From: Candidatus Woesebacteria bacterium RBG_13_46_13
Lineage (GTDB): Bacteria > Patescibacteriota > Microgenomatia > UBA8517
Direction: 5' to 3'
Length of the DNA stretch: 64,000 nt
Assembly: GCA_001791995.1 (NCBI GenBank)
Contig: MGFR01000005.1
Span: forward strand, 26,895 to 90,894
The notes below the pieces were generated by a model that was given only the letters and a program-made list of their open reading frames with translations, did not search any database and was not told where the DNA came from. A program made the translations under genes and the position numbers. Of the stretch, positions 1 to 64,000 are shown in pieces. Positions within the stretch are counted from its first letter, which is position 1, and each line of letters begins with the position of its first letter.

Positions 1-742
1 ATGAGGCTACAATTTCCGGCTTCGGCCTAAAAAAAACTTCGGGAAAATAAAAGTCTTTCGGAAAGGGCCTACCAAGCTCGTATTTATATTTGATATCTCT
101 CTTGGGAACCTTACGGTCCTCCATAAGTCCGGAAGAGCGAATAAGATGGGTCAGGTGCATATACGACCGGTCGACAAACATCCTTTTTGCCGGGGTTCTC
201 CCCTGTATCAAGATATTGTTCTCGTCATAATACCCGTGCTGTCCGTGGGGTTTTGCAGTATAAAGGCCAGGAATACTCCTGTTAATAAATCTTATTGTCA
301 GATGTCCCACCCTCCCGTCTATTTTGTACATACCGGCTTCTTCTTCCTGATAATGATAAATGTCGCCTATTGGCAAAACCATCCTTACAACCACAGATTC
401 CATCCGATCGCCTTTTTCCTGAATTCTCCTTACAACTTCTTTAATCGATTCTTCCCACCAGACCTCATCCCCGTCCAATATCATAAACCAGTCCGAGGTT
501 GTCTCCTCGAGCATCTTTTGTCTTAAATCCGTATATCCCTGAGGGGTAACCTCACCAAACTCTTTAAAATCAATTTTTCCTGGATAGCGCTTTTGAATTT
601 CTTTGATTATTCTTGGAGTTTTATCCGTACTTCCCGTATCCCAAAGAAGAACTTTATCGACAAAATCGATTACACTTGTTACCGCATACCAGACATATCT
701 TTCTTCGTTTTTAACCAAAACATGGGCCCAGATACTCTTCAT
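1..742 (-). CDS. GT2-like glycosyltransferase, partial (3' end outside window); not in ORF track because no stop lies in the window
   Basis: Manual minus-strand translation from ATG at 742..740 reads MKSIWAHVLVKNEERYVWYAVTSVIDFVDKVLLWDTGSTDKTPRIIKEI...ILDGDEVWW with no stop down to position 1. GT2-like N-terminus (VxNEE, DTGSTD, DGDE/DxD). Start ATG overlaps the TGA stop of the upstream flippase gene (ATGA). Confidence 0.5.
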   Translation of the reverse strand, partial: MKSIWAHVLVKNEERYVWYAVTSVIDFVDKVLLWDTGSTDKTPRIIKEIQKRYPGKIDFKEFGEVTPQGYTDLRQKMLEETTSDWFMILDGDEVWWEESIKEVVRRIQEKGDRMESVVVRMVLPIGDIYHYQEEEAGMYKIDGRVGHLTIRFINRSIPGLYTAKPHGQHGYYDENNILIQGRTPAKRMFVDRSYMHLTHLIRSSGLMEDRKVPKRDIKYKYELGRPFPKDFYFPEVFFRPKPEIVAS

Positions 743-2019
743 TTATCAATCCAGTAGTATTTAACCACAATCGTCCAGGAATAGATCATCAAGATGGTAT
801 GAACCGCCCCGAAAGCAATCGTGGGACCTATCGGGCCATAAATTGGGATGAAGATGTAGTTCAGGGCAAAAATTGCGGCAAGCTGGAAAAAAGAGAAAAG
901 GCCGATGAATACGGTTTTTTTGAGCGCGTATATAATTGCCGTAACCGCAGGAACGGCAAGAAGATAGGGAATCATCGCGGCCGATAGGGCCTGGAAAACG
1001 GGGACGGACTCAATATATTTGACACCGAAAAGTAAAACAATGAACGGTTTCGCGATAATTATCCAAAATACTATCCCCACCGATGTCGCCAGAACCGCCA
1101 AGGTCGCCTTAATAAGGTAGCTTCTTTCCTTCTCCCTATTTTCGAAAGCTGCAAATCTCGGAGCCAGGACCGAAGAAAGACTGGAAGAAAGAACCACTAT
1201 GAAAGAGGATAGTTTTGCCGGTATCGAGTATATTCCTGTCGCAGCCGCTCCGGCTATCGCGGCAAGCATTTGAATATCAAGCTTCCCGGAAATTGAAGAA
1301 ATAATTCTATTTACTCCTAGCCAGCTGGAAAATTTCACCAACTTTAGGTATATGTCCTTCTTTGGTTTAGCTCTTAAAAAGCCAAGTCCTGTGAAGGCAA
1401 ATCCCACAATCCCTGCAATGGCAACGCTAATTGTAAAGGCGGCCAAGGTAGAATTGATTGTCAAAACTCCCGCTATTAAAAGAAAATAGGGGATAACCGC
1501 CTTAGGCAAGCTCAAGGAAACGTCGATAAGAACAGACTGCAGGAATTTCTTCTTCGCATGTAGGATCGAAGGGAGAAATCCCCAAATAACCGCAAGGAAG
1601 GATATGGCTGCCACCCAGTAGGAAATAGTTCTGTCGTTTGTTGCCAACCAACTTCTGGCAACAAAGGCGGCAAATAAAATCAAGAAAAGGACCAAAGGGA
1701 GAGTTGCGAGGACCTTTATCAAAAAGGCTGCTTTCGCATATTCATAGGCTTTGGCGATGTTGTCCCTCGAAAATTCTGCCGCCGCGAAGCTTATCAGCCC
1801 GGAGGAAATCCCCAAATCGGTAAGTGAAGAAACAATTACGATCAAGTTTGTGGCTGCGGAAAGTATTCCAAAATCCTCAACGCTCAAGGCTCTGGCAACG
1901 ATAACTGTAAAAACGAATCCCAAGAAAGCAGCAAATAAGTTGCCGCTGAATAAAATATATGTATCTCTGGCGGTTCCCGATCTAACAAGCCCGAATGCTC
2001 GACCGATATACTTTCTCAC
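739..2019 (-). CDS. Wzx-like oligosaccharide flippase (MOP/polysaccharide biosynthesis protein family)
   Basis: 426 aa, about 12 predicted TM helices. Overall composition and N-terminal region (RDTYILFSGNLFAAFLGFV...ARALSVEDFGI) are typical of the PST/Wzx family. Confidence 0.65.
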   Translation of the reverse strand: MRKYIGRAFGLVRSGTARDTYILFSGNLFAAFLGFVFTVIVARALSVEDFGILSAATNLIVIVSSLTDLGISSGLISFAAAEFSRDNIAKAYEYAKAAFLIKVLATLPLVLFLILFAAFVARSWLATNDRTISYWVAAISFLAVIWGFLPSILHAKKKFLQSVLIDVSLSLPKAVIPYFLLIAGVLTINSTLAAFTISVAIAGIVGFAFTGLGFLRAKPKKDIYLKLVKFSSWLGVNRIISSISGKLDIQMLAAIAGAAATGIYSIPAKLSSFIVVLSSSLSSVLAPRFAAFENREKERSYLIKATLAVLATSVGIVFWIIIAKPFIVLLFGVKYIESVPVFQALSAAMIPYLLAVPAVTAIIYALKKTVFIGLFSFFQLAAIFALNYIFIPIYGPIGPTIAFGAVHTILMIYSWTIVVKYYWIDK

Positions 2020-2764: not shown

Positions 2765-4363
2765 TTATTTTCTGACAAGAAGAACCGCTCGGCTACCCTG
2801 CTGTTCATAGGTTTCCGAAGATGACACCGAAAACTCTCCGGCGAGTTTATAATTTTCGGATATATATTTATCCTGGATATGTCTGGGGTTTTCTAATATC
2901 TGTCTCCATTCCTGTCCCATATAATAATTTTCGTCATCGATGAGATAATCCGTGATGTATATTGCGTCGACTCTTTCTCCAACATCCTTAAGCATTTCGG
3001 TCTTCAGAGGATACCAGATGGTTTTTCTTTCTCCATACCAGCTTCCCCACGTATCAAGATTCGTCAGAACAACATCGTCCGGTTTTGTGTTTTCCTTTAA
3101 AACCCGAGAGAGCTGTACATAAACCGGCGTTTTGTCTTTATTTAGGCTTTTCGATATAAATCTCGAGTCAAGAAATAGCACGCCCAACGTTTGCCCTACC
3201 ACAAAAAACAGAATTAAGAATGAGGAGGCGAAAGTTATGATTCCTGATTTGTGTTTGATCAATAGCGCTCTCGCCTTTCCATCCGCAACCGGCAGTGAGC
3301 TATCGATTGCTTTTCCGATAATCCAAACTAAAGTTGCTGTGGCTAAGAGATAGACCAATGGGACAACCGGGTGTATATAGCGATACAACGGAATAGTAAT
3401 AGCGCTGGCGGCAAAGGTTAACGCAACGATAATAATAGTTGTAACCTTAAACGAATTCTCTGCCCGCCCTCTTCCCCAAATCAAAATTCCGATGAAAAAT
3501 AGCGCCCACATATATGGAGAGGCGGTTTGGGGGAGAAGTTTATAAAAGTTGTACAGATTGTAAAGCAGCTTTTTAACAATTGCTAAGAAATTCACATCCT
3601 GCACAACTCCTCTGAGGGATACCGAGGAAGAAATCCCGGGTAGAGTCTGGGTTATTGCAAAAATACCCTGATAGGATTTGGCAAAAAAGACTAGAATTCC
3701 CAAGATAGAAACTACCACGAAATACTTAATCGCACTTTTCAAGGAGTAGTTAAGCAGAAAAAAGAAAAGCAAAAGACCAAATATAAATATTATCGATTGT
3801 GCTTTGGTGAAATACATTAAAACCAACACAAGTATTCCAATTAAATTTGCCCATCTTTTTCTCAATAAAATCAAATAAGCAGCTAGTAAGATCTCAAAAA
3901 TGAAAAGTGACTCCGATGCCCCACTGGTTGCATAACTTAAAAGGCTGACGTTAAAGCACCCCGCCACTGCGGAAAGAATCCCGACCCTCTCTCTAAACAA
4001 CCGTTTCCCGAGCAAATAAATAAGAACAATTGACCCTATGAAAAATATTGTCGAGACTGCAATCACTGACGAATCGGAGACGCCCAAAAAGGAGAACATT
4101 AGGGCAATTGCCAGGGGCATAACGGGAGGAACGTAGAGAGCTGAATATATACCCATTTCGGTAGTTGGAACAGGAGGGCTAAAAAAACGAAATGAAGACC
4201 CGTACCCTTTACCTTGGACAATATTTCTTGCAATATCTGCAAATTTTGCCCCATCGGAAAAAGTAAGATATGGACTCGAAGTGTATTTATGAAATATATA
4301 GGGGACGAAAACCGAGAGTATAATTATAAGAATCAACAGAACGTATTTTTTCCGAACAAACAT
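2765..4363 (-). CDS. polytopic membrane protein, GT-C-fold glycosyltransferase-like (ArnT/PMT-like topology) with C-terminal soluble domain
   Basis: 532 aa with more than 10 hydrophobic helices. First-loop acidic motif (TFSDGAKFADIARN); hydrophilic C-terminal 130 aa. Confidence 0.45.
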   Translation of the reverse strand: MFVRKKYVLLILIIILSVFVPYIFHKYTSSPYLTFSDGAKFADIARNIVQGKGYGSSFRFFSPPVPTTEMGIYSALYVPPVMPLAIALMFSFLGVSDSSVIAVSTIFFIGSIVLIYLLGKRLFRERVGILSAVAGCFNVSLLSYATSGASESLFIFEILLAAYLILLRKRWANLIGILVLVLMYFTKAQSIIFIFGLLLFFFLLNYSLKSAIKYFVVVSILGILVFFAKSYQGIFAITQTLPGISSSVSLRGVVQDVNFLAIVKKLLYNLYNFYKLLPQTASPYMWALFFIGILIWGRGRAENSFKVTTIIIVALTFAASAITIPLYRYIHPVVPLVYLLATATLVWIIGKAIDSSLPVADGKARALLIKHKSGIITFASSFLILFFVVGQTLGVLFLDSRFISKSLNKDKTPVYVQLSRVLKENTKPDDVVLTNLDTWGSWYGERKTIWYPLKTEMLKDVGERVDAIYITDYLIDDENYYMGQEWRQILENPRHIQDKYISENYKLAGEFSVSSSETYEQQGSRAVLLVRK

Positions 4364-4369
4364 GACTGA

Positions 4370-5056
4370 TTATATCATTGGAGTTGCCTGCTTTTCTGCC
4401 TCAAGAATTAAACCGTAATTCTTCTCGACCTTCGATATTCCGTCAATTCTGCTCGATAGACGCTTCTTTTTTAGAATATTCTTAAATCCGGCTTTTAACA
4501 GATGGTGCCGAAGCGAATCCTCGTCATACATCCATTTGTGTGTATGGAAATCCTGCAAACTTAGGAGTATTTGATAAAAAATGTTCCCGCTTCGTCTCGT
4601 CGGGGTCCTTAATCGCATTTTGTTCATCATAGAATCCGCCGCAGGAATTTCCTCTTCTTTCGTTTCGCCTAAATAAGACAAAACCTGTTTCCTTAGGTCA
4701 GGAACCATTAATCTTAATATCCCTCCCTTTATTAGGATTCTATGACAGTCTATTAGTAGTCTATCGGCATCATCGAGGTATAGATGTTCTAGTAGATGCG
4801 ATGAATAGATTGCTACAACTGAATTGTCTCGAAAGGGCAACCTCTTCCTAACATCGTGAATAATTATACTTTTGTTCCATTTAATATTAGCAATTTTTTG
4901 TGGAATAATACCGATAACGCCCAGCAATTTCCGGAGGCGTCTCATTCTCCCAAATCTCGCATTTAAAGAGCCATCAATATTAATCCACCCCGACGGAGTT
5001 ACCGTCCCGCAGCCCAAATGGATACGCAATCGTTTACTCTTGGACATAATGTTCAA
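4370..5056 (-). CDS. class I SAM-dependent methyltransferase (Methyltransf_11-like)
   Basis: Motif I HLGCGTVTPSGWINID; acidic motif SHLLEHL; LIKGGILRL. Confidence 0.6.
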   Translation of the reverse strand: MNIMSKSKRLRIHLGCGTVTPSGWINIDGSLNARFGRMRRLRKLLGVIGIIPQKIANIKWNKSIIIHDVRKRLPFRDNSVVAIYSSHLLEHLYLDDADRLLIDCHRILIKGGILRLMVPDLRKQVLSYLGETKEEEIPAADSMMNKMRLRTPTRRSGNIFYQILLSLQDFHTHKWMYDEDSLRHHLLKAGFKNILKKKRLSSRIDGISKVEKNYGLILEAEKQATPMI

Positions 5057-5952: not shown

Positions 5953-7092
5953 TCAATTGGATTTTAATGAATGGACTTCTAAGGATTTGATAGTTTTTGC
6001 AACTCTTATCATTTGATTTTCTGTAATTGCTAATCCGGAAGGCAGGTATAGACCTCTAGTTGCGATGTCTTCGGCTATCGGAAAATTTTCAGTTTTATTC
6101 AAATATTTCTTTAACACTGGTTGATCTTTCGGAGGATAGAAGAAATCCCTCGTATCAATACCCTTTTCCTTAAGTCTATCCCTTAACTCATCCTTTGTAA
6201 TTCCGATCTTTTCCGGATCGACCAATACTGAATACATCCAGTAAACGTTGGTTGCGTACCTTTTGGTAATAGGAGTCCTTACTCCGGGAATATCTTTCAA
6301 TAGTAATCCGTAAAGATTAGCCATGTATTGTTTCTTAAGGAGATATTCTTCTACGTGTTCCAACTGGCCACACCCTAAGGCTGCCTGGAGATTTGTTAAT
6401 CGGTAATTAAAACCAACCCCGTCGTGAATAAAACGTTTTTCTGTCGAATGGTGTAAATCTTTAAATTTTCGAGCCGCCTCAGCTAACTTTTCATCATTGG
6501 TCACTACCATTCCACCCTCTCCCGTTGTCACAATTTTGTTCCCATAGAAACTGAAACAGTTAACTACTCCAAAAGAACCTACTTTCTTACCTCTGTAGGT
6601 GGCACCATGAGCTTCTGCCGCATCCTCGACAACAAAGAGCTTGTGCTTTTTTGCAATCTTCATTATCGGGTCCATATCTGCGGGATGTCCATAAATGTGT
6701 ACCGGCATTATGGCTTTCGTCTTTTTTGTAATTTTTTTTTCAATCAGTTTCGGGTCAATGCAATAAGTTTCGGGCTCACAGTCCACAAAAACAGGTTTGG
6801 CGCCGACAAATATTACTGCCAGCCAAGAGGCGGCCATGGTAAAGGCGGGGATAATTACTTCATCTCCGGGGCCTATTCCCAAAGAAAGAAGGGCTACGTG
6901 TAGTGCTGCAGTACCGTTAGAAACCGCTACCGCGTATTTTGTTCCGATATACTCTGCGAACTTCTCTTCAAAAAGGCCTACATACTTCCCGGCAGAGGAG
7001 ACCCACCCCGTATTGAGAGCGTCATTGACGTAAATCTTTGCTTCCTCGGAAATTACTGGTTCGTTAACTGGAATGAAATCATCCATGTTCAT
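5953..7092 (-). CDS. DegT/DnrJ/EryC1/StrS-family PLP-dependent sugar aminotransferase
   Basis: Strong family signature: DEVIIPAFT, HIYGHPADMD, VVEDAAEAHGATYRGKKVGSFG, and FYGNKIVTTGEGGMV (a K within 'FYGNK' is the likely PLP lysine). Confidence 0.85.
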   Translation of the reverse strand: MNMDDFIPVNEPVISEEAKIYVNDALNTGWVSSAGKYVGLFEEKFAEYIGTKYAVAVSNGTAALHVALLSLGIGPGDEVIIPAFTMAASWLAVIFVGAKPVFVDCEPETYCIDPKLIEKKITKKTKAIMPVHIYGHPADMDPIMKIAKKHKLFVVEDAAEAHGATYRGKKVGSFGVVNCFSFYGNKIVTTGEGGMVVTNDEKLAEAARKFKDLHHSTEKRFIHDGVGFNYRLTNLQAALGCGQLEHVEEYLLKKQYMANLYGLLLKDIPGVRTPITKRYATNVYWMYSVLVDPEKIGITKDELRDRLKEKGIDTRDFFYPPKDQPVLKKYLNKTENFPIAEDIATRGLYLPSGLAITENQMIRVAKTIKSLEVHSLKSN

Positions 7093-11080: not shown

Positions 11081-11083
11081 TTT

Positions 11084-13886: not shown

Positions 13887-13991
13887 CGAATAATATACCT
13901 CTTACAATGCTATAGAATACTAAATTATCCAGGCTATAACAAATAAGGCCCTGCGTAGACAAAATAGGAAGCCAGTGATAACATCTTCGTT
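13887..13991. promoter_or_regulatory. divergent intergenic region (105 bp) between the nucleotidyltransferase operon (-) and the GAPDH-like/CDP-alcohol phosphotransferase pair (+); probable bidirectional promoter
   Basis: One of only three non-coding gaps over 90 bp in the window. AT-rich with -10-like hexamers (tagaat, tacaat). Confidence 0.3.
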
Positions 13992-15038: not shown

Positions 15039-15042
15039 TCAT

Positions 15043-54956: not shown

Positions 54957-57316
54957 CTCGCCGGAGTTCGTCCTAGCTTAACTTCAATTTTATGCATTCC
55001 CGGGGCAATATTAAAGCTCACGAGCCCCAAACAGTACTCTTGGCCCCTGCAATCGTTATTAACGTGGGCTACGACTTTTCCGTCAACCATGACCTTCATC
55101 CCGGGAAAATCGAAGATGGGGAGCCTAATTAACGCCTCTTTCGTAACCGTAACTTCTCCTGTTTGAAAATTGGATCCCTTTTCGTAACTAATAAAGTTGG
55201 CCTCCCCCTCCAAAACCTCCGGGATATCAGATGCTTTTGACGGTGGAGGAAGTTTGGCATATATCGGCAGATAGTCGAAAATGCTAATCGTCAGCTGTTT
55301 TTCCCAAGAGGCACCCGAGAATTTATCCGTATCGGTTATATTCAACCAAGCTTTGGGAACAAAGAAATTCGCATACAGGATAAAGGCTGCAATAACTGCT
55401 GCGATCCCCAACAGGTAGCGAAACTTCCCCGCGAAATAGACAGCCAATCCGGAAAGAATTGCCAACAAGAATATGCTGATCGACAAAAACCGCCAAGGAA
55501 ACTGCAACCAATGAAGAAAAGGCAGCTTTTCCCAGATAAAACTGGATTTAAGGTGCATCATAAAAAGGACCAGAAGTTCCGAGCCAACAAAGACAAAAGT
55601 CAGAGTGGCCAGTTTTCTCTCCTTCTTAAATCTGAATGCGGCAAGAACTCCCGCCAGGATTCCGATAAGCCATTGGACTATTCCGGTTGAAAGATTTAAT
55701 TTTTCGGCAGGAAAACCCGAAGAGCCGTAGCCCCACTCCATCGAGAGAAAAAGCTTGTAGACATTTACAAAATGGGCCCGGTAATCAAAATACCCGGAAA
55801 GAAGCGATTCCAAGTGTGCATACTTTCGCTCCAAGAGAAGAGGAATCAAGTAAAAAGCCGACAAACCAAGTCCCAAAAGCCCCGCCAGGATAATTTTTCC
55901 AACCACCTTCCACTTTTTCTCGGTATATATCCAATAACCTATCCAGACAAGCAGAAACGGAGCAAAAATCATCGAAATCAAGCTGTGTGTGGTCAAAAGC
56001 AGAAGAATCGAAATTGCGGTCCAGATTATATATCTTGTTTTTGCCTTTGTAGTGAGCCGGTAGGTCGCCCAAAATGCCAAGGGAAGAAACGCCAAAGACC
56101 AAAATTCATTTAAGGCTCCTCTGACAAAAACCTCAACGGCTTTATAAGGAACATAGGAATAGATGAGGGCCGCAACTACCCCCGGCCAATTCCCCAAGAA
56201 GGACTTAACCAGAACAAACATCGCCAGAGCCGAGGCAATATAGCCCAAAACGAAAAGAACCTTGACCGCGTCGATATATTGAAGTCCGATGCGGTGCAGA
56301 AGAGCCCCTACGTAGTAAACGGACGGCGGATAATAAATGAATTGGGGATATCCGTATTGATAGCCGGCATCCGGCACCCAGCGGCAGGGAATTTGGAAAT
56401 CGTCAAAGCATTTGTCCATCTGCTGGACCCTAAAGGCCTGCAAATCATCCTGCATCGGGAAAAAGCCGGGTCGGACAAGTCTAAAAAAGGTCGGGACAAT
56501 AAGGGCGGTGATTAAAAGAGCCAGCAGCAAGTTTCTGTTAAGCTTCTGCCCCAACCACATAATGGCTGTTATAATGAAGTGTTTTAACCTCCCGTGGTAA
56601 ATCTTGCTTGAAGGAATAAGCCGCCTCCACTGATTAGTATTCCCAGCTATCCCCTTTCCGCTTTCCCCGTGGTAATGGATAATTTCTGCCCGGGGCAGAT
56701 AGTAAGTTTTCAATCCGGCCCTTTTTACCTGCCTGCAATAATCCAAATCCTCAAAATACATAAAGTACCGGGAATCCAACTTCCCTACTTTTTTAAGGGC
56801 CTGTGGAGTAATTAAAAATGCAGCGCCGACTATGGCGTCTACTTTAGTGGGGCTTATCCCGACCGGAGCAAATTTATCGTAATGGCCTTCCTCGCCGAAC
56901 CAGTATTGCTTGAGTGCCCCGGCTATCCCCGGAAAATTGAAACACGAGGCCTGGACAGAGCCATCCTTATTTAACAGTTTTGCCCCAACCACTCCCGCAT
57001 CCGGGGTATCTTTGGCAAACTCCACGAGTTTATCGATGGCGCCCTTTCTAACCAGCGTATCCGAATTTAAAAGAAGGATATATGTTCCTTTTGATGCCTC
57101 AATCCCTTGATTGACTGCTTTGGCAAAGCCTAAATTCTCCTTGTTTATTATTAAGCGAAAATCCGCTGCCGGTAAGGTAAATCCGTCTTGGCTGCTATTT
57201 TCGACTACTATAATTTCGAAAGGAATGCTTGTATTTTTCTTAACGGAGGCGATGCAGTCCTCTACCAGTTTTCTGGTATTATAGTTGACTATTATTACCG
57301 AGATTGTGGGCTTCAC
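54887..57316 (-). CDS. fusion protein: N-terminal GT2 glycosyltransferase + C-terminal GT-C-like membrane domain of the 'PGW-x-VDG' family
   Basis: N-terminal MKPTISVIIVNYNTRKLVEDCIASV...IIVVENSSQDG...LLLNSDTLV (GT2). Then FFPMQDDLQAFRVQQMDKCFDDFQIPCRWVPDAGYQYGYPQF... and C-terminal FDFPGMKVMVDGK. 809 aa. Confidence 0.7.
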   Translation of the reverse strand: MKPTISVIIVNYNTRKLVEDCIASVKKNTSIPFEIIVVENSSQDGFTLPAADFRLIINKENLGFAKAVNQGIEASKGTYILLLNSDTLVRKGAIDKLVEFAKDTPDAGVVGAKLLNKDGSVQASCFNFPGIAGALKQYWFGEEGHYDKFAPVGISPTKVDAIVGAAFLITPQALKKVGKLDSRYFMYFEDLDYCRQVKRAGLKTYYLPRAEIIHYHGESGKGIAGNTNQWRRLIPSSKIYHGRLKHFIITAIMWLGQKLNRNLLLALLITALIVPTFFRLVRPGFFPMQDDLQAFRVQQMDKCFDDFQIPCRWVPDAGYQYGYPQFIYYPPSVYYVGALLHRIGLQYIDAVKVLFVLGYIASALAMFVLVKSFLGNWPGVVAALIYSYVPYKAVEVFVRGALNEFWSLAFLPLAFWATYRLTTKAKTRYIIWTAISILLLLTTHSLISMIFAPFLLVWIGYWIYTEKKWKVVGKIILAGLLGLGLSAFYLIPLLLERKYAHLESLLSGYFDYRAHFVNVYKLFLSMEWGYGSSGFPAEKLNLSTGIVQWLIGILAGVLAAFRFKKERKLATLTFVFVGSELLVLFMMHLKSSFIWEKLPFLHWLQFPWRFLSISIFLLAILSGLAVYFAGKFRYLLGIAAVIAAFILYANFFVPKAWLNITDTDKFSGASWEKQLTISIFDYLPIYAKLPPPSKASDIPEVLEGEANFISYEKGSNFQTGEVTVTKEALIRLPIFDFPGMKVMVDGKVVAHVNNDCRGQEYCLGLVSFNIAPGMHKIEVKLGRTPARWVGDIISLVTVGFVVAVWLRRK

Positions 57317-58212
57317 GTCGCGAATCTAGAAAATATTGCTTCGTCGGAAACTTGCGCCTCTTTCCTCTCTTTTCTTCTGGCTTTGACCACGGTGCCTAAT
57401 TTTAAAAGGGCCGAAAGAACAATTCTGGTGTAACCGGGGTGTCTTGCCATTCTCGAAAAAAGTGCGCTGAGGTGTTTCCTGAAAAGATTCTGGCTGGTGA
57501 TATTTTTCCAGATAAATAAAAGTTCGTTACGCTGTCTTATTCTTTGGGTATACGACTTATTCAGTGTCGATATCGTAGATTCATGATGGTGTTCAACCAA
57601 GGCAGCCGGCTCCCAAATCACCTTATAACCCCGTTTATAGGCCCGGTAAGAAAGGTCGATGTCTTCCCAATAAAAAGGCGAGAACAATTTCTCATCCATC
57701 CCGCCGAGAGCCAACCAGGTTTTCCTCCTGAAAACCGCGCTTCCTCCGCTGGCCCATAAAGACAAATGGGAACTGCCGGTCACCGGACCCGGAGAATGAT
57801 GCAAAAATCCTTGCTTGAAATCCCCTTTTGCCCAAGAATAGTCTTTTTCTTTGAAGGATACGGCAAATACACGCTCGTCCTCAAAATGTTTCAGGGCTTC
57901 TTGTAGGAATTCCCTAGAGGGGGCTACGTCGGTATTGATAAGCGCAACCAAGCTACCTTTGGCCATTCTGACCCCGGTATTTACTGCAGCTGAAAATCCC
58001 CTATTAACCTTATGTGTAATTATTTTTAGGGAAGGAAATCTTTCTTTTAAACCCGCAGCCTTCTCAACCGGCGAGCCGTCATCAACAACAATTATTTCGG
58101 AGATTGCGTTGGACTCAACCTCCTTGGCCTCAATTACTTTGGGTAAATTGGCCAACAGCAGTCCCTTGGTATTGTAGTAGGGAATAATTATTGAAACCGA
58201 TAAGTCTTTCAT
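57313..58212 (-). CDS. GT2-family glycosyltransferase
   Basis: VSIIIPYYNTKGLLLANLPKV...IIVVDDGSP...ALINTDV. Confidence 0.8.
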   Translation of the reverse strand: MKDLSVSIIIPYYNTKGLLLANLPKVIEAKEVESNAISEIIVVDDGSPVEKAAGLKERFPSLKIITHKVNRGFSAAVNTGVRMAKGSLVALINTDVAPSREFLQEALKHFEDERVFAVSFKEKDYSWAKGDFKQGFLHHSPGPVTGSSHLSLWASGGSAVFRRKTWLALGGMDEKLFSPFYWEDIDLSYRAYKRGYKVIWEPAALVEHHHESTISTLNKSYTQRIRQRNELLFIWKNITSQNLFRKHLSALFSRMARHPGYTRIVLSALLKLGTVVKARRKERKEAQVSDEAIFSRFAT

Positions 58213-58304
58213 TTTCTTACCCTGACCACATGCAACATTCCCAAATTAAATTTCTTGTCTACCTCCATGCCTATTTTAAACGAATGGGAGCCTGTAAGGA
58301 AGAG

Positions 58305-59330
58305 CTATAACAACGCAGACAGTTTTTCTGCGAAAACGTCGTAGCTATATTTCTTGCTGTCCAGCCTGGCCTCCCTGCCCAATTTTACCAAAAGACCTTT
58401 CGTTTCGATAAGAGTCCTGGTGTTTTTGAGAAGCTCCTGTGTACTTGCCCATAAAAATCCGTTTTCCCCCTCTCTGACAATTTCCTTATAACCTCCCCCC
58501 CTATAAACAAGCGGGGCTGCGCCTGCCGCCATTGCCTCAACTGCGGAGATACCAAAGTGCTCAAACTTTTCAGGTTCTTTTTCCTCCTTTGCCCCAAAGC
58601 CAACCGCCGACCAGAATATCTTTGCCCTCCCGTAGAGAGTGCAAATCTCTTTAAATGTCGGACTTTCAACAATCTCTATGGGGTAGCCGGAAGATATTTT
58701 TTTTATATTCTCCAAATACTCTTTTCCCCCTATCTCAGCGCCCCCGGCCAAAATAAGTTTCCACTCGGAGTATCCCGAGTCGTAAAGTCTTTTGAAGGCT
58801 TTTATTAAAACATCCTGGTTTTTGGCCTGTGTCAGCTGGGAAAATCTGCCCACGAAGGTAATAATATCCTCTTTAATCTTTGGTCTGATTTTCTCTATCG
58901 CTACAGGTGGATAGATGACAGCCGAATCTACCCCGTATTCCGCATCGATGAAACTCTTGGTAAAGCGGGAGTTACAGATAACCTTGGAAATCCTCCAAAG
59001 CTTCATTTTATTAAGCAGGGTTACGCCTTTTACGCCGTGGAAGGGAACCTGAAAGTGGAGAAGGTTTTTCCTGGCCTTCAGAGCCGGAATGGACCCGTCG
59101 GACACCCAAAAACAAAGATCGTACCCGTCTCCCCGGGCGATATCTTTAACAAAATTGATATCCGTCAGTTTAATTCCAAATCTATCCTCCAGCTTATTCT
59201 TGACTGAAGGGCTCCTCCACTGCACATCTACTTTATAGCCCTTATTTTGCAGAACAGTGGCAACGGCTAGGCTGTAGCGCTCTCCGCCTCCTAGGGTATC
59301 AAGATATGGATTATATATTGCGGCTCTCAT
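58305..59330 (-). CDS. GT4-family glycosyltransferase
   Basis: FEHFGISAVEAMAAGAAPLVYRGGG (EX7E). Confidence 0.75.
   Translation of the reverse strand: MRAAIYNPYLDTLGGGERYSLAVATVLQNKGYKVDVQWRSPSVKNKLEDRFGIKLTDINFVKDIARGDGYDLCFWVSDGSIPALKARKNLLHFQVPFHGVKGVTLLNKMKLWRISKVICNSRFTKSFIDAEYGVDSAVIYPPVAIEKIRPKIKEDIITFVGRFSQLTQAKNQDVLIKAFKRLYDSGYSEWKLILAGGAEIGGKEYLENIKKISSGYPIEIVESPTFKEICTLYGRAKIFWSAVGFGAKEEKEPEKFEHFGISAVEAMAAGAAPLVYRGGGYKEIVREGENGFLWASTQELLKNTRTLIETKGLLVKLGREARLDSKKYSYDVFAEKLSALL
58313..58331 (-). terminator. possible weak intrinsic terminator hairpin overlapping the last codons of the GT4 gene
   Basis: Minus-strand CGCAGA-aaaactg-TCTGCG (6-bp stem, 7-nt loop) followed by TTGTTATAG, then a 92-bp non-coding gap. 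Confidence 0.2.
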
Positions 59331-60135
59331 TCTTTTGCATCTCCCAAAGCTTTGCGTATGTTATCATGCGGGAAAACGTCTGGTAAATTATTTCGATCAC
59401 CCCCACCGCTCCGTCCAGAAATCCCAGTTTTAAAATCGCCCGATACCGAAATTCCCTGGCCGCAACGGAAATAAACCTCCACCAGACCATCTTGGGATGC
59501 CCTGATTCAAAAAGCAGTTTGGCTTCAATAGCCGACCATTCATTCGTTTTGGCAACCATCTCGGATAAACTCCTGTGGGAGATATGCGTAAGCGGATTTT
59601 TAAGCTTGCCCACTTCTCCTTTAATTGCCGGTTGTTCATGAAGCTCGCCTTTCCAACCCAAAAGGGCATCTTTTTTTATCAGTCTTAAAACATAGTCGGG
59701 CCACCAGCCCCCCCAACGCATGGGGTGACCCAAAAGAATATTCTTTCTGGGAATTGCGTAAGCATTATATTTCAGTTGATGATTGGTGATTAGGGATTGA
59801 ATTTCTTTTCGCAGTGCGGGGGTAACTCTCTCGTCGACATCGACATAGAGAAGCCAATCTCCACCGGCAACCTTTGCACCCAGATTTCTCCTGTCGGCAA
59901 AACTACCCTTAAGAGACTTAACGATTTTGGCACCTTTGCCTTTCGCAATTTCAACGGTTTTATCCGTACAGCCGTTATCGACAACAATTATCTCATCGAC
60001 CCAGGTAAGGGAAGCCAGGCAATCTCCAATCAGGGCTTCTTCGTTTTTAACCAAAATTACTGCCGAGGTTTTCATTTCCAGCTTCCTTTTTCCAGGCGGC
60101 CGAGGTAATAATCCCTGATGCCAGCCCTCTGCCAC
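59311..60135 (-). CDS. GT2-family glycosyltransferase (WaaE/KdtX-like subgroup paralog)
   Basis: TSAVILVKNEEALIGDCLASLTWVDEIIVVDNGCTDKTVEIA...LYVDVDERV. Confidence 0.75.
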   Translation of the reverse strand: MAEGWHQGLLPRPPGKRKLEMKTSAVILVKNEEALIGDCLASLTWVDEIIVVDNGCTDKTVEIAKGKGAKIVKSLKGSFADRRNLGAKVAGGDWLLYVDVDERVTPALRKEIQSLITNHQLKYNAYAIPRKNILLGHPMRWGGWWPDYVLRLIKKDALLGWKGELHEQPAIKGEVGKLKNPLTHISHRSLSEMVAKTNEWSAIEAKLLFESGHPKMVWWRFISVAAREFRYRAILKLGFLDGAVGVIEIIYQTFSRMITYAKLWEMQKNESRNI

Positions 60136-60995
60136 TTCCTGCCGCTGATAATGAGCCGCAGGCTTTCTCTAATTAAGGCCAGCTTGGTTCTTAGGGGAGC
60201 AAACTTAAATCCGAAGAGTAGTCTGTTGCGGGTGATAAAGTAGTCGTTGAGGTCCCCGCCAACCTTCGAGCTTTGGGAAACTTTGTGCCAGATCTGGGTT
60301 CTAGGGGTATAAACAATTTTAATTCCGGCCCTCTTTGCCCTTTCTGAGAGTTCGACATCCTCCAAATAGGCAAAATATTTGGGATTGAAAAGCCCCACTT
60401 TTTCAAAAACCCTCTTTTTGACAAACATACAGGCGCCGGTAGCAAAATCCGTCTCTTTTTCTTCATCGTATTGGCCACGATCAACATCATCAACCCCGTT
60501 ATTGGTTGCATATAGATTGCCCCAGTCGATATTCCCCCCTGCGGACCAGATAACCTTCCCGAGGACATACTTGGGGTATCTGTCTTTATGAAATTCAAAT
60601 CCCGGAGCAAAATAGATCTTCGGCACAAAGATCCCCGCATCCTTGTTTGCCCGCGCGGATTTTATAAGCTCGACAACCAAACTCCTGTCAACCAGAGTAT
60701 CGTTATTCAGAATCAGGACATAGTTGGCCCCTGTCGCCAGGGCCTCCTTTATCCCGACGTTGTTCCCTTCGGCAAAACCCAAATTTTCGGAATTCTTGAC
60801 AACCATGAAGGGAATATTCGTAATTTTGTTTAAGGCTTCGATGGAGCCGTCGCTTGAGGCATTATCGACCACAATTATACTTAGCTCATAACCCACTGTG
60901 GCTATCCGGCTTAAAGACTTGAGGCACTCAATCATGTCATCTTTTCTGTTCCAGTTAAGAACCACTATCGTTACTTTGGGAATTGTTTTACTCAT
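60072..60995 (-). CDS. GT2-family glycosyltransferase (WbbL/rhamnosyltransferase-like architecture)
   Basis: VTIVVLNWNRKDDMIECLKSL...IIVVDNASSDGS...LILNNDTLV. Confidence 0.75.
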   Translation of the reverse strand: MSKTIPKVTIVVLNWNRKDDMIECLKSLSRIATVGYELSIIVVDNASSDGSIEALNKITNIPFMVVKNSENLGFAEGNNVGIKEALATGANYVLILNNDTLVDRSLVVELIKSARANKDAGIFVPKIYFAPGFEFHKDRYPKYVLGKVIWSAGGNIDWGNLYATNNGVDDVDRGQYDEEKETDFATGACMFVKKRVFEKVGLFNPKYFAYLEDVELSERAKRAGIKIVYTPRTQIWHKVSQSSKVGGDLNDYFITRNRLLFGFKFAPLRTKLALIRESLRLIISGRKWQRAGIRDYYLGRLEKGSWK

Positions 60996-61902
60996 TGCCT
61001 AAAAAGATACGCCGATAAACCCGCTTGGGAAGCGAAGCAATAAAACTTCCCGACTTAATTAAGACCTCGATAATCCACCAGTTAATCTCCTTATTGGCTC
61101 TTTTTACCTCGGCTGCGAACTGCTGGGTAGAAACGGCCTGTGGGGTAAATTGTTCCGCCTGCCAAAGCTTAAGATAAAGGGCCAGTTCGGAAAAGGCCTG
61201 TAGGCAGGCCAAGGCCAATCCGTGCAGGCCGTCCTTATAGCCTTCTCCGGCAAAATAACGGCTCAAAAATTCCGCCAAAGGGCGCCTTATTACATCGTGC
61301 CAAACAAATTTGTATTCCTTCTGGACTAGCGCCCGCGCCTGAACATCGGTGTAGCGGTTCATCCTTTCGATAAATTTCGCAATCGAGGTGTAATTGTAAT
61401 GGGTAATTGCGTATTTCTCCTCAGCTGGAAGGTCAAGTCCTTTACCGATGGTCATCGGCACCGAATGGATAATCTCGTTCCAGGTAACGCTGCCTTTTTT
61501 GAAAAACCTGATATTGTAATCCGGCCACCAACGGGAGTTTTTAATCCAACGTTTGAAATTAATGTTTCTTCTCGGTAAGCGGTAATAGTCGGCCTGGGGA
61601 CTTTTGACAATCTGCTTAAGCTTTACCGCCAGGCTTTGGGGTATCTCCTCATCAGCATCCAAGACAAGCACCCAGTCTTTGGAGGCCTTATCGATGGCAA
61701 AATTTCTGGCCGGCTCAACGTATCCGACCTTTTCGTGATGAAAAACCTGGGCGCCGTAATCTTTGGCAATTGCCACGGTTTTATCCGTGGACTCCATATC
61801 CACAACCACTATCTCATCGGCAATATCCTTGACGGACTCCAAGGCCCGGGCGATATTTTCCTCCTCGTTGAGCGTATTGACAACAACCGAGATTGATCCC
61901 AC
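60988..61902 (-). CDS. GT2-family glycosyltransferase (WaaE/KdtX-like subgroup paralog)
   Basis: ISVVVNTLNEEENIARALESVKDIADEIVVVDMESTDKTVAIA...VLDADEEI. Confidence 0.75.
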   Translation of the reverse strand: MGSISVVVNTLNEEENIARALESVKDIADEIVVVDMESTDKTVAIAKDYGAQVFHHEKVGYVEPARNFAIDKASKDWVLVLDADEEIPQSLAVKLKQIVKSPQADYYRLPRRNINFKRWIKNSRWWPDYNIRFFKKGSVTWNEIIHSVPMTIGKGLDLPAEEKYAITHYNYTSIAKFIERMNRYTDVQARALVQKEYKFVWHDVIRRPLAEFLSRYFAGEGYKDGLHGLALACLQAFSELALYLKLWQAEQFTPQAVSTQQFAAEVKRANKEINWWIIEVLIKSGSFIASLPKRVYRRIFLGNE

Positions 61903-61921: not shown

Positions 61922-63409
61922 TTACTTGCCAAGAAGAGTTTTGAAGCCCTTTTGCACGTCCTCTTTAATCGAAATCCCGACCAATATATATATTGCAACC
62001 ATATAAACTGCGACTCCGGTGGCAACCATGATAAATACACTACTTGTGCTAACCGGGAGAATCCGCCTTAGAAATAGAAGCGTTCCTCCCATAACAGCAC
62101 TCGCCAGGAGGGGCTTAAGCGCGGACTGGGACAGCGAAAAATTCACAAACCTCTTGGCTACAAAAATCGCGATCAGAGAACTTGTCCCCACCAGAGCATA
62201 GCCCGCGGCGGCCCCGTTTACGCCGTATTTGATGGAAAGAATCGGTACAAATAACCAGGTAAGGACCGTCCACATAATCATCAGCTTAAAAGTAATTTTA
62301 ATTCTGCCCACGGCATTTAAGAGATTGGTCAGCTGTGTCGTCACGGCGGCAAAAAGCGTGTTGATCGCAATTAATCCCAAGGGCAAAAGGGCCGGCTCCC
62401 ACTTTCCGTAACGGGGAATTATCGCAACCAAGGTGGGGGCCAAAACCAGAAGCCCCGCTAGGCTGGGGAAAACCAGAAAACAGATGAAAAAGATGGAACG
62501 GGTAACCGATCTTTCCAGGTGCTCTTTGGCGTCCTGCATCCTTGAAAATGCCGGGAAGGTAACCTTAATCACATGGTCCATAAAAAACCTCAAAGGTGCC
62601 TGGCCCCATTTTTGGGCCCAACCCAAAAATCCTACCCCGGCCGGCCCCAAAATCCCTCCCAAAACCGCCGTCATCCCGTCGTCCTTGATTGTCGCCAAAA
62701 GGGTATTTGCCTGATAAGGGACACCGAATTTCAAAAGGCCACCCAAGGACTTCCTGGAAAAGGCAAATCCCGGCACCCACGGCTGTAGGATATAAATTGC
62801 GATAAGTCCCACCACTCCTCTGGCCAAGACGGCAACCGTAAAGCTGGTTATGCCAAAACCCTTCCAAGCCAAGATAACCGCCAAAAGACTATAAACCAGA
62901 TTTTCCAATACCTGGGGAATAACCAATTTGCCAAACTCAAGTTTGCGCTCAAGAAGCGCCGACGGAATTGTTTTTAGAGAGGAAAAAAAGAGCGAAAGAC
63001 CCAAGGCATAAAGCAGCATTCTTGCCTCAGACGTAAATCCATATATCCTGGAGAGGGTTGGGCTAACCAGAAAGATAATTACTAAAAGGGTAAGAACAAG
63101 AACCTGCTGAACGGTAAAGGTGGTTCTTAAATCGGCTTTGTCGGGGTTTTCCTTTTTTTGGATAAGGGCGGCGGCTAAGCCGACATCGCTAAAATAGGCA
63201 AGAAAATTAACGATTGCCGAAACAATCCAGAAGATACCAAATTCGGAAGGACTCAAAAAAACCGTCAAAAATCCCGTCGCCACCAGCGAAAGAACGCTTA
63301 GAAGAAAGGTCCTTCCGGTTAAAACCACTACCCCTTTAACGGCTCTAGATTTGACCGTATCGATGGTTATTTCGGCATTCGGATCCAGATGTTCCTGAGT
63401 TTCCTGCAT
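61922..63409 (-). CDS. Wzx-like oligosaccharide flippase (MOP/polysaccharide biosynthesis protein family)
   Basis: 495 aa, 12-14 TM, PST-family architecture: N-terminal cytoplasmic segment then SVLSLVATGFLTVFLSPSEFGIFWIVSAIVNF. Confidence 0.7.
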   Translation of the reverse strand: MQETQEHLDPNAEITIDTVKSRAVKGVVVLTGRTFLLSVLSLVATGFLTVFLSPSEFGIFWIVSAIVNFLAYFSDVGLAAALIQKKENPDKADLRTTFTVQQVLVLTLLVIIFLVSPTLSRIYGFTSEARMLLYALGLSLFFSSLKTIPSALLERKLEFGKLVIPQVLENLVYSLLAVILAWKGFGITSFTVAVLARGVVGLIAIYILQPWVPGFAFSRKSLGGLLKFGVPYQANTLLATIKDDGMTAVLGGILGPAGVGFLGWAQKWGQAPLRFFMDHVIKVTFPAFSRMQDAKEHLERSVTRSIFFICFLVFPSLAGLLVLAPTLVAIIPRYGKWEPALLPLGLIAINTLFAAVTTQLTNLLNAVGRIKITFKLMIMWTVLTWLFVPILSIKYGVNGAAAGYALVGTSSLIAIFVAKRFVNFSLSQSALKPLLASAVMGGTLLFLRRILPVSTSSVFIMVATGVAVYMVAIYILVGISIKEDVQKGFKTLLGK

Positions 63410-64000
63410 TTATTTTGTTACTTCAAAGAAAAGTAAATCCTCCCTTCTCCCCTCCGGCTTAGTAGCCTTGGGATAGGAGTTAATCAGTCTTAATCCCAGC
63501 TTGTCCGCATCTTCCAAAAGTCGCGTGCTATTGACCACCAAATAGGTTTTATTTCCATAAGCGCGGGATTCGGCAAGAGGAGTGGGAATCTTGTCTATCC
63601 CCAACCCAACCCCCACAACAATTATCTGGGGCATATCGTTAAGATACATTTGCAGCCCATCCGGTAGAGTTCCGAAGTATCCTTCCGTTCCGATGACTAT
63701 TTTCTTGCCCGGTTCGCGAGCAAACTCGGCCCTGACCAACTCGGAGACCTCTTTGATGCCAAAGCCTGCCGTCCAATCTTCCAAATAGCCAGACCTCTCG
63801 CTTCGGGGCAGTTGTGCTTTTTGAATATCAAAGAGTAGCCGTCTATTAACCATCAGGCTTTGCGAAAGAAAGAGAGCCAAGAGAATCATCCCGGCCCAAT
63901 ATAGGGATTTTTTGCCGGTAGGCAGTATGTTTCCGGCAAAAATCGCCAAATACGGCAGGGTAAAGAGAATATATCTTGCAGTATAGACCTTCGCATATTC
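63410..64000 (-). CDS. membrane-anchored protein, partial (5' end outside window)
   Basis: The reading frame stays open upstream of the TTG at 63949 to the window edge (...EYAKVYTARYILFTLPYLAIFAGN...). One TM segment then a soluble domain. Confidence 0.35.
   Translation of the reverse strand, partial: EYAKVYTARYILFTLPYLAIFAGNILPTGKKSLYWAGMILLALFLSQSLMVNRRLLFDIQKAQLPRSERSGYLEDWTAGFGIKEVSELVRAEFAREPGKKIVIGTEGYFGTLPDGLQMYLNDMPQIIVVGVGLGIDKIPTPLAESRAYGNKTYLVVNSTRLLEDADKLGLRLINSYPKATKPEGRREDLLFFEVTK

Follow-up and report, generated by a model that had tools for sequence, protein, structure and literature searches.

The window, that is the whole 64,000-nt stretch of DNA analyzed here, carries a continuous run of genes that appear to serve cell-envelope glycosylation and among which glycosyltransferases (GTs) of the GT-C type dominate (Table 1). 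Gene models were defined as the longest open reading frame (ORF), and all window proteins were scanned against Pfam and NCBIfam. From the 56 ORFs found initially, 55 were kept as real genes, nearly all of them (52) on the minus strand. The plus-strand ORF at 146–526 was discarded as spurious, since it overlaps a GT2 gene on the minus strand (window positions −100 to 742), and the last ORF (63410–64000) is the C-terminal portion of a 509-aa PMT/PMT_2 gene that begins outside the window. Coding sequence makes up 99.2% of the window and genes overlap at 37 of the 55 junctions, in agreement with the single continuous glycan locus with hardly any intergenic space that an earlier note on this DNA had described from its letters. 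Contrary to that note, the genes are not short; the mean protein length is 386 aa. Non-ATG starts were obtained for 14 of 54 genes under the longest-ORF rule, a provisional figure. At 2765–5056 the NCBI calls are shorter than the longest ORFs (440 vs. 532 aa and 112 vs. 228 aa), and the start sites there are uncertain, since the methyltransferase Pfam match falls within the part that NCBI omits.

The inventory comprised 10 complete GT2-domain proteins and a truncated one (1–742), four GT4 proteins, two MOP/Wzx flippases near opposite ends, a DegT aminotransferase, a weak WbuC-like cupin, a PRK07233-family FAD oxidoreductase, one DUF2304 protein, five methyltransferase domains (four stand-alone and one fused to GT2) and seven metabolic-looking genes (9499–15801). 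A glycan-related family or fold was recognized for about 47 genes, the others being small membrane proteins or enzymes of the seven-gene set. The previously claimed figure of at least 55 glycan-related genes is therefore too high. Likewise, 12 or more GT2 and five GT4 proteins had been counted, which is more than we found; the flippase pair, DegT and multiple methyltransferases were all recovered as predicted.

An exact-sequence look-up returned, for three window proteins, identical entries from Candidatus Woesebacteria bacterium RBG_13_46_13, a member of the Microgenomates (locus tags A2Y68_00145 to A2Y68_00405, Rifle aquifer sediment), which bears out an earlier guess that the DNA comes from the Candidate Phyla Radiation (CPR)/Patescibacteria. 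Identical sequences occur also in a third-party annotation re-assembly labelled Patescibacteria group bacterium, and homologues of several window genes are named Woesebacteria, Daviesbacteria, Gottesmanbacteria or Microgenomates. The window matches DATEXV010000001.1 (268,555 bp; GCA_035256625.1) at 52,377–116,376 with unchanged orientation and three single-base differences, at window positions 63608, 63611 and 63961; the two may perhaps be sister assemblies of one population. The G+C content of the left third (about 6–24 kb) is 36–40% vs. 43–48% in the remainder (24–64 kb), and this part may be a more variable or acquired portion of the locus.

Twenty-one window proteins were assigned to GT-C, close to the earlier estimate of about 20, and seven more in the flanks bring the number to 28 in 81.4 kb. 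Two thirds of the window set (14 of 21) scored above the gathering threshold of a Pfam GT-C family (PMT, PMT_2, Mannosyl_trans2/PIG-V, GT87/PIG-M or PTPS_related/YfhO), including the fusion protein 54887–57316 and the truncated 63410–64000. The 33873–35387 protein reached 24.6 bits for PMT_2 vs. a cut-off of 26.1, yet it clusters with the PMT_2 paralogues. The 19313–20611 and 50335–51594 proteins were counted as paralogues of Pfam-positive genes, and 24644–26125 because its homologues at 45–60% identity carry PF13231 or a GT39 name. For two further proteins the assignment rests on AlphaFold2 models compared by Foldseek. The best PDB neighbours of 48395–50338 (pLDDT 90, pTM 0.92) were exclusively GT-C enzymes (DPY19, AglB, AftA, PglB, ALG12, ArnT, AftD, Emb), its C-terminal domain resembling the AglB globular domain, and those of 21566–23203 (pLDDT 93) were ALG9, STT3, ArnT, DPY19, PglB and Pmt4. 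Both are thus predicted to adopt the GT-C fold, in which an N-terminal membrane module of many helices is joined to a variable extracytoplasmic domain, and 44617–46605 follows by paralogy with 48395–50338. Conserved acidic residues occupy the positions of the GT-C catalytic Asp/Glu: D127, together with H131, is invariant among 39 sequences of the 48395 family, the first loop of the 21566 family (45 sequences) has an invariant D46 and a nearly invariant D45, and a DE or DD motif follows TM1, the first transmembrane (TM) helix, in most PMT_2-type and YfhO-type members, including a loop-1 DE in the first three of the four tandem genes at 32266–38684. In total, the locus holds at least seven GT-C sequence families, at least two of them without a Pfam model.

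Sequence comparisons among these families were less informative. With shallow paralogue alignments, hhalign linked PMT_2 weakly to the YfhO, PIG-V and 48395 families and did not place 21566–23203, 24644–26125, 18310–19335 or 38671–39291. PDB sequence searches with 24644–26125, 21566–23203 and 18310–19335 gave no useful match, and NCBIfam had none for the Pfam-less membrane proteins or for the GT87, PIG-V and YfhO-type proteins. The 48395 family is large, with 523 homologues at 41–67% identity; those that are named are hypothetical proteins and their organism, where given, is Woesebacteria or Daviesbacteria. Members of about 1,130 aa (P0018, P0019, P0068, P0085 and others) carry some 480 extra residues, in some cases with PF12979.

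The structural neighbours raise the question whether these enzymes act on proteins. PMT/oligosaccharyltransferase (OST)-like GT-C paralogues could each O- or N-glycosylate separate secreted proteins such as S-layer proteins, pilins or lipoproteins, with no single polymer being made. The PMT and PMT_2 matches, the neighbours DPY19, AglB, PglB, STT3 and Pmt4 with the AglB-like C-terminal domain of 48395–50338, and a 126-bit match of the flippase 61922–63409 to an 'O-glycosylation flippase' model are all consistent with such a role. However, the WWDYG-type motif (W[WYF]D[YWFN]G) is absent from every window protein, a bare WWD occurring solely in 19313–20611, and membership of the OST family (STT3/AglB/PglB) was rejected on this ground. 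Moreover, no MIR domains and no obvious target protein are encoded in the locus, PMT_2 also covers enzymes that modify lipids or glycans, e.g., ArnT, and seven GT-C families in a strictly conserved order (see below) suit an ordered pathway better. Glycosylation of many separate proteins is accordingly a possibility that we doubt, albeit the least doubtful of the alternatives considered here.

None of the window proteins matched PF02397, PF00953, Wzy_C, EpsG, O-antigen polymerase/ligase, Wzz, ATP-binding cassette (ABC)/ABC-2 or LCP families at Pfam E ≤ 0.01, in line with the reported lack of an initiating phosphoglycosyltransferase (PGT), Wzy, Wzz and ABC exporter. The ten family-less membrane proteins gave no Wzy, EpsG or O-antigen-ligase match even at E ≤ 5. 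All 23 window proteins with at least eight predicted TM helices are GT-C (21) or MOP flippases (2), so that no Wzy candidate remains; the membrane proteins 18310–19335, 20601–21569, 38671–39291 and 46598–47206 have too few TM helices for Wzy. We also examined both flanks, about 8 kb on the left side and 9.4 kb on the right, taken from the NCBI record with its precomputed Pfam hits. Among these hits no PGT, Wzy, Wzz, ABC or LCP gene was present in either flank (17 kb), although a PGT and a Wzy immediately outside the window had been named as the finding that would make this a conventional locus. Instead, the flanks carry more GT2, GT4, PMT_2 and PIG-V-like genes, a methyltransferase and a DHH phosphoesterase, and the right one has a GT2-GtrA_DPMS_TM fusion; this domain occurs solely there, no GtrA-family protein being encoded inside the window. 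Since both flanks continue the glycan genes, the locus is longer than 81 kb, its two ends lying outside the stretch covered here. In the right flank, the DHH/DHHA1 phosphoesterase lies between PMT_2 genes at about 67385–68386 (L001 5024–6025), and a zf-ChsH2/OB-fold protein lies beyond the last PIG-V-like gene at about 71905–72333 (L001 1077–1505).

Judged by the components of known export routes, the 81 kb hold Wzx-type flippases (739–2019, 61922–63409), while PGT, Wzy and Wzz/polysaccharide co-polymerase (PCP) were not found, and no ABC or ABC-2 domain of an ABC-dependent pathway occurs in window or flanks. A conventional Wzx/Wzy heteropolysaccharide locus would require a PGT encoded elsewhere and a polymerase too divergent to be recognized. 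The two flippases and about 15 cytoplasmic GT2/GT4 enzymes would fit such a locus, and Wzy proteins are well known to be divergent (PMC10920833). On the other hand, every protein with at least eight TM helices is already accounted for, the permissive searches gave no polymerase or ligase, and a collinear 66-kb locus of another genome (GCA_040961665.1) likewise lacks PGT, Wzy, Wzz, ABC and LCP matches.

The conservation of the locus bears on the same question. Four to five more Microgenomates genomes (Woesebacteria CP066686.1, CAZIMC01, a Daviesbacteria-like contig and two further genomes) keep its gene order at 45–60% identity. For window 37–62 kb, read from the high end, the shared order begins with a block of GT2 and GT4 genes and the GT2-GT-C fusion, intact or split. 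There follow a pair of YfhO/PTPS_related genes, a member of the 48395 family between two GT87-like genes, a protein of about 200 aa and the 44617 paralogue, and finally PMT_2 genes, the AglJ-like GT2 and a small membrane protein. The 44617 paralogue lies on the opposite strand in three of the relatives (L013, L016, L020), as in the window, and the soluble-transferase block 57313–61902 has syntenic orthologues 50–60% identical. Furthermore, three contiguous stretches of GCA_040961665.1 (record 349.6–415.8 kb) match the order of nearly the whole window, including the PIG-V/GT2/DUF2304/GT2/GT39-like run and the seven-gene set with its GT4, GT-C and DegT neighbours. Because gene order is conserved across Microgenomates, we read the locus as a lineage-wide core system, unlike the hypervariable O-antigen loci. 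It occupies perhaps 8% of the genome, if a size of about 1 Mb is assumed from the Woesebacteria chromosome record CP066686.1 (1.08 Mb). O-antigen or capsule loci do not show such strong conservation, in order and in sequence, across families, and with no polymerase candidate left we consider a Wzx/Wzy locus with its PGT elsewhere improbable, the weakest of the explanations weighed.

Two small GT2 proteins, 27243–27902 and 39295–40047, point to another route. Their best NCBIfam matches were PpgS, AglJ and Dol-P (dolichyl phosphate) hexose transferase, over the full length but all under the curated cut-offs, in keeping with the two Dol-P-Man-synthase-like GT2 proteins noted before; similar genes in the flanks likewise scored under the cut-offs. 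Each directly adjoins a GT-C gene (27906–29093 and 40044–41663, respectively). The PpgS-like GT2 27243–27902 forms with the DUF2304 gene 26908–27246 and the subsequent GT-C gene a trio that is found also in GCA_040961665.1 (L021) and that we take to mirror mycobacterial Rv3631/Rv3632/Rv3779, DUF2304 being the Rv3632 family. As PpgS/AglJ-like GT2 genes adjoin GT-C genes, and these are numerous and diverse, polyprenyl-monophosphate donors are favored. We thus think it fairly probable that the window forms the middle 64 kb of a super-locus for cell-envelope glycosylation with polyprenyl-monophosphate-based, mainly extracytoplasmic assembly; the donors, the order of steps, the flipped species and the acceptor (lipoglycan, wall polymer or surface proteins) are what we infer from the genes.

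In the proposed scheme, small DPM1/AglJ/PpgS-type GT2 enzymes (27243–27902 with DUF2304, 39295–40047, the GT2 half of 23185–24642 and others in the flanks) would charge polyprenyl monophosphate with single sugars at the cytoplasmic face. The soluble GT2/GT4 enzymes, methyltransferases and the DegT/cupin pair would make and tailor a lipid-linked primer or oligosaccharide, a cytoplasmic stage that the soluble GT2/GT4 block beside the flippase 61922–63409 would fit. The first sugar could be placed on polyprenyl phosphate by a GT2, as by AglJ in Haloferax, which would make a PGT dispensable; alternatively, the primer may be the product of the CDP-alcohol phosphotransferase gene set discussed below. 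The pair of MOP flippases would carry lipid-linked intermediates outward, perhaps together with the small membrane proteins; outside, the 21 GT-C enzymes of at least seven families would add residues from polyprenyl-phosphate sugars to a conserved envelope glycoconjugate. A precedent is the Haloferax volcanii N-glycan, which is begun on dolichol monophosphate by the GT2 AglJ, extended by soluble GTs and transferred by the GT-C AglB, its final mannose coming from Dol-P-Man with the involvement of the proposed flippase AglR and the GT-C AglS (PMC3871713).

Several points weigh against this scheme. The mechanism is drawn from family membership and gene order, and all matches of the candidate polyprenyl-phosphate glycosyltransferases lie under the NCBIfam cut-offs. 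MOP flippases act mostly on oligosaccharides linked to a diphosphate. These would require a PGT, and its gene could lie in another part of the genome; in Gram-positives tagO often lies apart from the genes of its pathway. Some GT-C enzymes could use diphosphate-linked donors in the manner of OST, given the modeled neighbours PglB, AglB and STT3, although WWDYG is absent. Finally, with about 11 soluble GT2/GT4 enzymes much of the assembly may be cytoplasmic. Extracytoplasmic assembly from polyprenyl-monophosphate sugars, as suggested earlier, therefore agrees with the GT2/GT-C neighbours and the lack of a Wzy candidate, but the word 'predominantly' is a matter of degree, because two MOP flippases and about 11 soluble GT2/GT4 enzymes imply a substantial cytoplasmic lipid-linked stage. 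The term 'periplasmic' is doubtful as well, as the cell probably has a single membrane.

The seven genes at 9499–15801, which like the CDP-alcohol phosphatidyltransferase among them (15043–15801) had gone unmentioned in the earlier note, encode a VOC-fold protein, a dehydroquinate synthase (DHQS)-like enzyme, a short-chain dehydrogenase/reductase (SDR), a glycerate-2-kinase-like protein, a nucleotidyltransferase, a protein like glyceraldehyde-3-phosphate dehydrogenase (GAPDH) and a CDP-alcohol phosphotransferase. Largely the same gene set was found in a second Microgenomates genome, on a Hainich groundwater contig and on a Nanoarchaeia-named contig. In two of these loci an unrelated PF02595 Gly_kinase stands in for the MOFRL-type kinase, and this non-orthologous displacement argues that the kinase activity is required. 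Homologues of the DHQS-like protein (50–59% identity) include fusions to VOC, and some are named Pacearchaeota, Nanoarchaeia or Woesebacteria. The recurrent gene set, the DHQS-VOC fusions and the kinase displacement mark the module as a probable functional unit.

Regarding its chemistry, a genuine 3-dehydroquinate synthase (AroB) was rejected for 9938–11080, which scored 251.6 vs. the 305 bits required and, compared with 3okf and 3clh, has a deletion of the approximately six-residue segment with the conserved Arg before N-x-G-H, so that the R-x-x-L-N-x-G-H segment of DHQS is not intact. In DHQS this Arg serves in carboxylate binding. The protein is thus probably not a dehydroquinate synthase. 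The pairing of a cyclase with a VOC protein resembles the pairs of 2-epi-5-epi-valiolone synthase (EEVS) and VOC epimerase of C7-cyclitol pathways. The nucleotidyltransferase 13167–13886 resembles the cytidylyltransferase half of IPCT/DIPPS, and the best NCBIfam matches of the CDP-alcohol transferase were DIPPS, archaetidylinositol-phosphate synthase and PIP synthase. Relative to the reference motif D-x2-D-G-x2-A-R-x7-12-G-x3-D-x3-D, the latter protein reads D..DG..AR..G...D...H, with His for the fourth Asp, as does its orthologue in a related locus (L017, 4422–5189), while a homologue in another (L018) keeps the Asp. We read the module as a putative Kennedy-type route in which an alcohol would be made, phosphorylated, activated with a nucleotide and transferred as phospho-alcohol. 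No description of such a module was found in the searchable literature.

These genes suggest a lipoglycan resembling lipomannan (LM)/lipoarabinomannan (LAM). The module would make a CDP-activated phospho-alcohol, cyclitol-like or glycerate-derived, which the transferase would attach to a scavenged lipid; the resulting anchor would be glycosylated in the cytoplasm by GT4 enzymes encoded nearby, exported by a MOP flippase and extended outside by the GT-C array, in parallel to the mycobacterial path from phosphatidylinositol (PI) through PI mannosides (PIM) to LM/LAM. Such a route accounts for the missing PGT. It agrees with the inositol-type matches of the transferase, with its position among a GT4, a GT-C and a 5-TM protein, an arrangement kept in L017, and with the GT87, PIG-V and PIG-M-type GT-C proteins, to which a relative (L014) adds an MptA_B_family gene. 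Nevertheless, no myo-inositol-1-phosphate synthase is encoded in the locus, DIPPS-type enzymes also make soluble solutes, the Nanoarchaeia-named contig has the module without a GT-C array, and the window protein carries the above His in its catalytic motif. We consider a lipoglycan of this kind unlikely, slightly more so than the glycosylation of many separate proteins. Both are variants of the polyprenyl-monophosphate scheme that differ in the acceptor.

Glyoxalase genes are reported among the transfers from Patescibacteria to DPANN archaea (PMC12455944). A more far-reaching proposal combines these observations: a Microgenomates coat of lipoglycan or glycoprotein, built by the densest known single-locus GT-C array, might be primed or decorated by an undescribed Kennedy-type pathway that yields a phospho-alcohol of a new kind, perhaps a carbocyclic sugar acid, and whose module has been exchanged between CPR and DPANN. 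We offer it as speculation, with a chance lower again than that of the LM/LAM-like lipoglycan.

Some further features of the locus were recorded. The segment 16952–21569 is a tandem duplicate of a two-gene module (pairs 20601/19313 and 18310/16952), each consisting of a 5-TM protein of about 330 aa with a C-terminal soluble domain and a PMT_2-type GT-C. The membrane proteins 18310–19335 and 20601–21569 gave no family in Pfam, including at E ≤ 5, or in NCBIfam, and their soluble domain contains the motif PPQ..WP...RYF.YPR. The fusion 54887–57316 has a fused counterpart of 814 aa in L014, with separate parts in other relatives, and at the counterpart of 23185–24642 in GCA_040961665.1 the methyltransferase and GT2 are separate genes. 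The FAD oxidoreductase 30986–32260 sits between a GT2 and a GT-C gene; eight loci with homologues (about 40% identity) were rejected as syntenic glycan loci, their contexts not being comparable.

Table 1. Genes of the 64-kb window, with strand, assignment and its basis (bit scores are Pfam or NCBIfam scores)
Position	Strand	Feature	Basis and remarks
1–742	−	GT2, N-terminal part of 280-aa gene leaving the window start	PF00535; gene called at −100 to 742
739–2019	−	MOP (Wzx-type) flippase, 426 aa	Polysacc_synt 89.9 bits; weak MOP-flippase-family NCBIfam match
2016–2762	−	S-adenosylmethionine (SAM) methyltransferase	Methyltransf_11
2765–4363	−	GT-C, PMT_2 type	PF13231 39.1 bits; left-flank paralogue; NCBI version shorter, 440 aa
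4370–5056	−	SAM methyltransferase	Pfam; NCBI call only 112 aa
5128–5841	+	Probable methyltransferase	Methyltransf_24, under cut-off
5953–7092	−	DegT/DnrJ/EryC1 sugar aminotransferase	418 bits; L017 orthologue, 68% identity
7079–7498	−	WbuC-like cupin, weak match	TIGR04366 25 bits, under cut-off; L017 orthologue, 61% identity
7479–8735	−	GT4 glycosyltransferase	Pfam
8732–9502	−	SAM methyltransferase	Pfam
9499–9999	−	VOC/glyoxalase-fold protein (seven-gene module)	Pfam; conserved context; homologues fused to DHQS-like protein
9938–11080	−	DHQS-like sugar-phosphate-cyclase-type enzyme (seven-gene module)	aroB 251.6 bits vs. 305 cut-off
11084–11842	−	SDR (seven-gene module)	Pfam, NCBIfam, conserved context
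11839–13170	−	Glycerate-2-kinase-like, DUF4147+MOFRL (seven-gene module)	Pfam, NCBIfam
13167–13886	−	Sugar/alcohol-phosphate nucleotidylyltransferase (seven-gene module)	IPCT-domain likeness, 81 bits
13992–15038	+	GAPDH-like dehydrogenase, catalytic Cys and His kept (seven-gene module)	250 bits vs. 367 cut-off
15043–15801	+	CDP-alcohol phosphatidyltransferase-family membrane protein (seven-gene module)	PF01066 34.9 bits, above cut-off
15798–16955	−	GT4 glycosyltransferase	Pfam; 49% identical L017 orthologue adjoining the CDP-alcohol transferase
16952–18337	−	GT-C, PMT_2 type	27.0 bits vs. 26.1 cut-off
18310–19335	−	Membrane protein, about 5 TM helices and C-terminal soluble domain, no family	Paralogue of 20601–21569
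19313–20611	−	GT-C-like	Paralogue of 16952–18337
20601–21569	−	Membrane protein without family	Paralogue of 18310–19335
21566–23203	−	Predicted GT-C-fold protein without Pfam family	AlphaFold2 pLDDT 93, Foldseek
23185–24642	−	GT2 (DPM/PgfS-like) fused to SAM methyltransferase	Pfam
24644–26125	−	GT-C (GT39/PMT_2-like), DD motif past TM1	Homologues with PF13231 or named GT39
26125–26904	−	Soluble GT2	Pfam
26908–27246	−	DUF2304 small membrane protein, partner of GT2 27243–27902	Pfam; pair also in L021
27243–27902	−	PpgS/AglJ-like GT2, candidate polyprenyl-phosphate glycosyltransferase	PpgS 117.9 bits, full length, under cut-off
27906–29093	−	GT-C, PIG-V (Mannosyl_trans2) type	42.8 bits; two flank paralogues
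29068–30114	−	GT4	Pfam
30107–30976	−	GT2	Pfam
30986–32260	−	FAD-dependent oxidoreductase, PRK07233 family	436 bits
32266–33876, 33873–35387, 35384–37036, 37083–38684	−	Four tandem PMT/PMT_2 GT-C	Pfam, paralogy
38671–39291	−	206-aa multi-TM protein without family	Downstream of AglJ-like GT2; L016 position matches
39295–40047	−	AglJ/PpgS/Dol-P-hexose-transferase-like GT2	NCBIfam; orthologues 64–68% identical
40044–41663, 41660–43129, 43087–44592	−	Three PMT/PMT_2 GT-C	Pfam
44617–46605	+	GT-C of Pfam-less family	Paralogue of 48395–50338
46598–47206	−	202-aa conserved protein, TM helices at either end	Syntenic orthologues 34–37% identical
47193–48398	−	GT-C, GT87/PIG-M type	Pfam
48395–50338	−	Predicted GT-C fold, Pfam-less family common in Microgenomates	AlphaFold2 pLDDT 90, Foldseek
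50335–51594	−	GT-C	Paralogue of 47193–48398
51584–53257, 53223–54956	−	Two YfhO/PTPS_related GT-C	Pfam
54887–57316	−	GT2 (N-terminal) and PTPS_related/PMT_2 GT-C (C-terminal) fusion, 809 aa	Pfam
57313–58212	−	GT2	Pfam; soluble-transferase block
58305–59330	−	GT4	Pfam; soluble-transferase block
59311–60135, 60072–60995, 60988–61902	−	Three GT2	Pfam; soluble-transferase block
61922–63409	−	MOP (Wzx-type) flippase, 495 aa	Polysacc_synt_3 191 bits; identical to OGM09420.1
63410–64000	−	PMT/PMT_2 GT-C, C-terminal part of 509-aa gene	Precomputed Pfam hit

CPR bacteria are believed to spend their lives on host cells to which they attach, and their surface is the interface of this contact. A conserved, GT-C-dominated locus points to a major envelope glycoconjugate made by a route that bypasses the PGT/Wzy/ABC schemes. 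Its components are of known kinds, i.e., GT-C enzymes, polyprenyl-phosphate glycosyltransferases and MOP flippases. What seems new is the scale and density (28 GT-C in 81 kb of a probably ~1-Mb genome), the conserved order of at least seven GT-C families across Microgenomates, with at least two families lacking a Pfam model, the lack of a visible backbone pathway, and the embedded phospho-alcohol module. In the literature we found no account of a GT-C or mannosyltransferase expansion in CPR, Microgenomates or Woesebacteria beyond brief mentions that Peregrinibacteria and Saccharibacteria have multiple Dol-P-mannosyltransferase annotations. For study, the locus offers candidate polyprenyl-phosphate-sugar synthases along with a conserved fusion of GT2 to GT-C and two GT-C families that lack a Pfam model, as well as targets for work on phage receptors and host recognition. 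The module common to CPR and DPANN archaea may represent a new solute or activated head group of ultra-small symbionts.

Among known systems, the Wzx/Wzy loci for O-antigen, capsule or exopolysaccharide share with the window the MOP flippases, GT2 and GT4 clusters, a DegT aminotransferase, methyltransferases and the lower G+C content seen here in the left third. They differ in having PGT, Wzy and Wzz/PCP and a hypervariable gene order, whereas the order in the window is conserved and GT-C enzymes are dominant. The three-component systems (GtrA/B/C; ArnC/E/F/T; CsbB/GtcA/YfhO; the pentofuranose systems, PMC11127046; reviewed in PMC8035078) follow the logic predicted here, from a GT2 polyprenyl-phosphate glycosyltransferase through a small membrane protein or flippase to a GT-C, and the window has YfhO/PTPS_related members of its own. 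Such systems, however, add a single decorating sugar to a polymer from another pathway; in the window locus no separate backbone pathway (PGT, Wzy, ABC) is visible and the GT-C genes outnumber all else. The Agl system of Haloferax volcanii (AglJ, AglG/I/E, AglP, AglR, AglB, AglD, AglS; PMC3871713) starts with a GT2 on lipid monophosphate without a PGT. Its other parts are soluble GTs, a methyltransferase, GT-C enzymes that transfer outside and a flippase associated with Dol-P-sugar; the candidate GT2 proteins of the window match the AglJ model below its cut-off. In contrast to Haloferax, the host here is a bacterium, there is no WWDYG-bearing OST of the AglB/STT3 type and the GT-C enzymes are far more numerous.

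The mycobacterial and corynebacterial machinery for LM/LAM and arabinogalactan (Ppm1, PpgS-Rv3632-Rv3779, PimE, MptA/B/C, Emb, Aft) likewise has many different GT-C enzymes, which use polyprenyl-monophosphate donors outside the membrane, as we predict here. The likeness extends to the PpgS-like GT2 with DUF2304 followed by a GT-C, to the GT87-type members and to the CDP-alcohol phosphotransferase and GT4 genes in the window locus. The differences lie in the host, a CPR bacterium without mycolic acids, in the lack of inositol-phosphate synthase and DprE1/E2, and in the GT-C families, which are others than those of mycobacteria, two of them without a Pfam model. Most of all, 21–28 GT-C genes are gathered in one locus of a probably ~1-Mb genome, whereas those of mycobacteria are scattered over 4.4 Mb.

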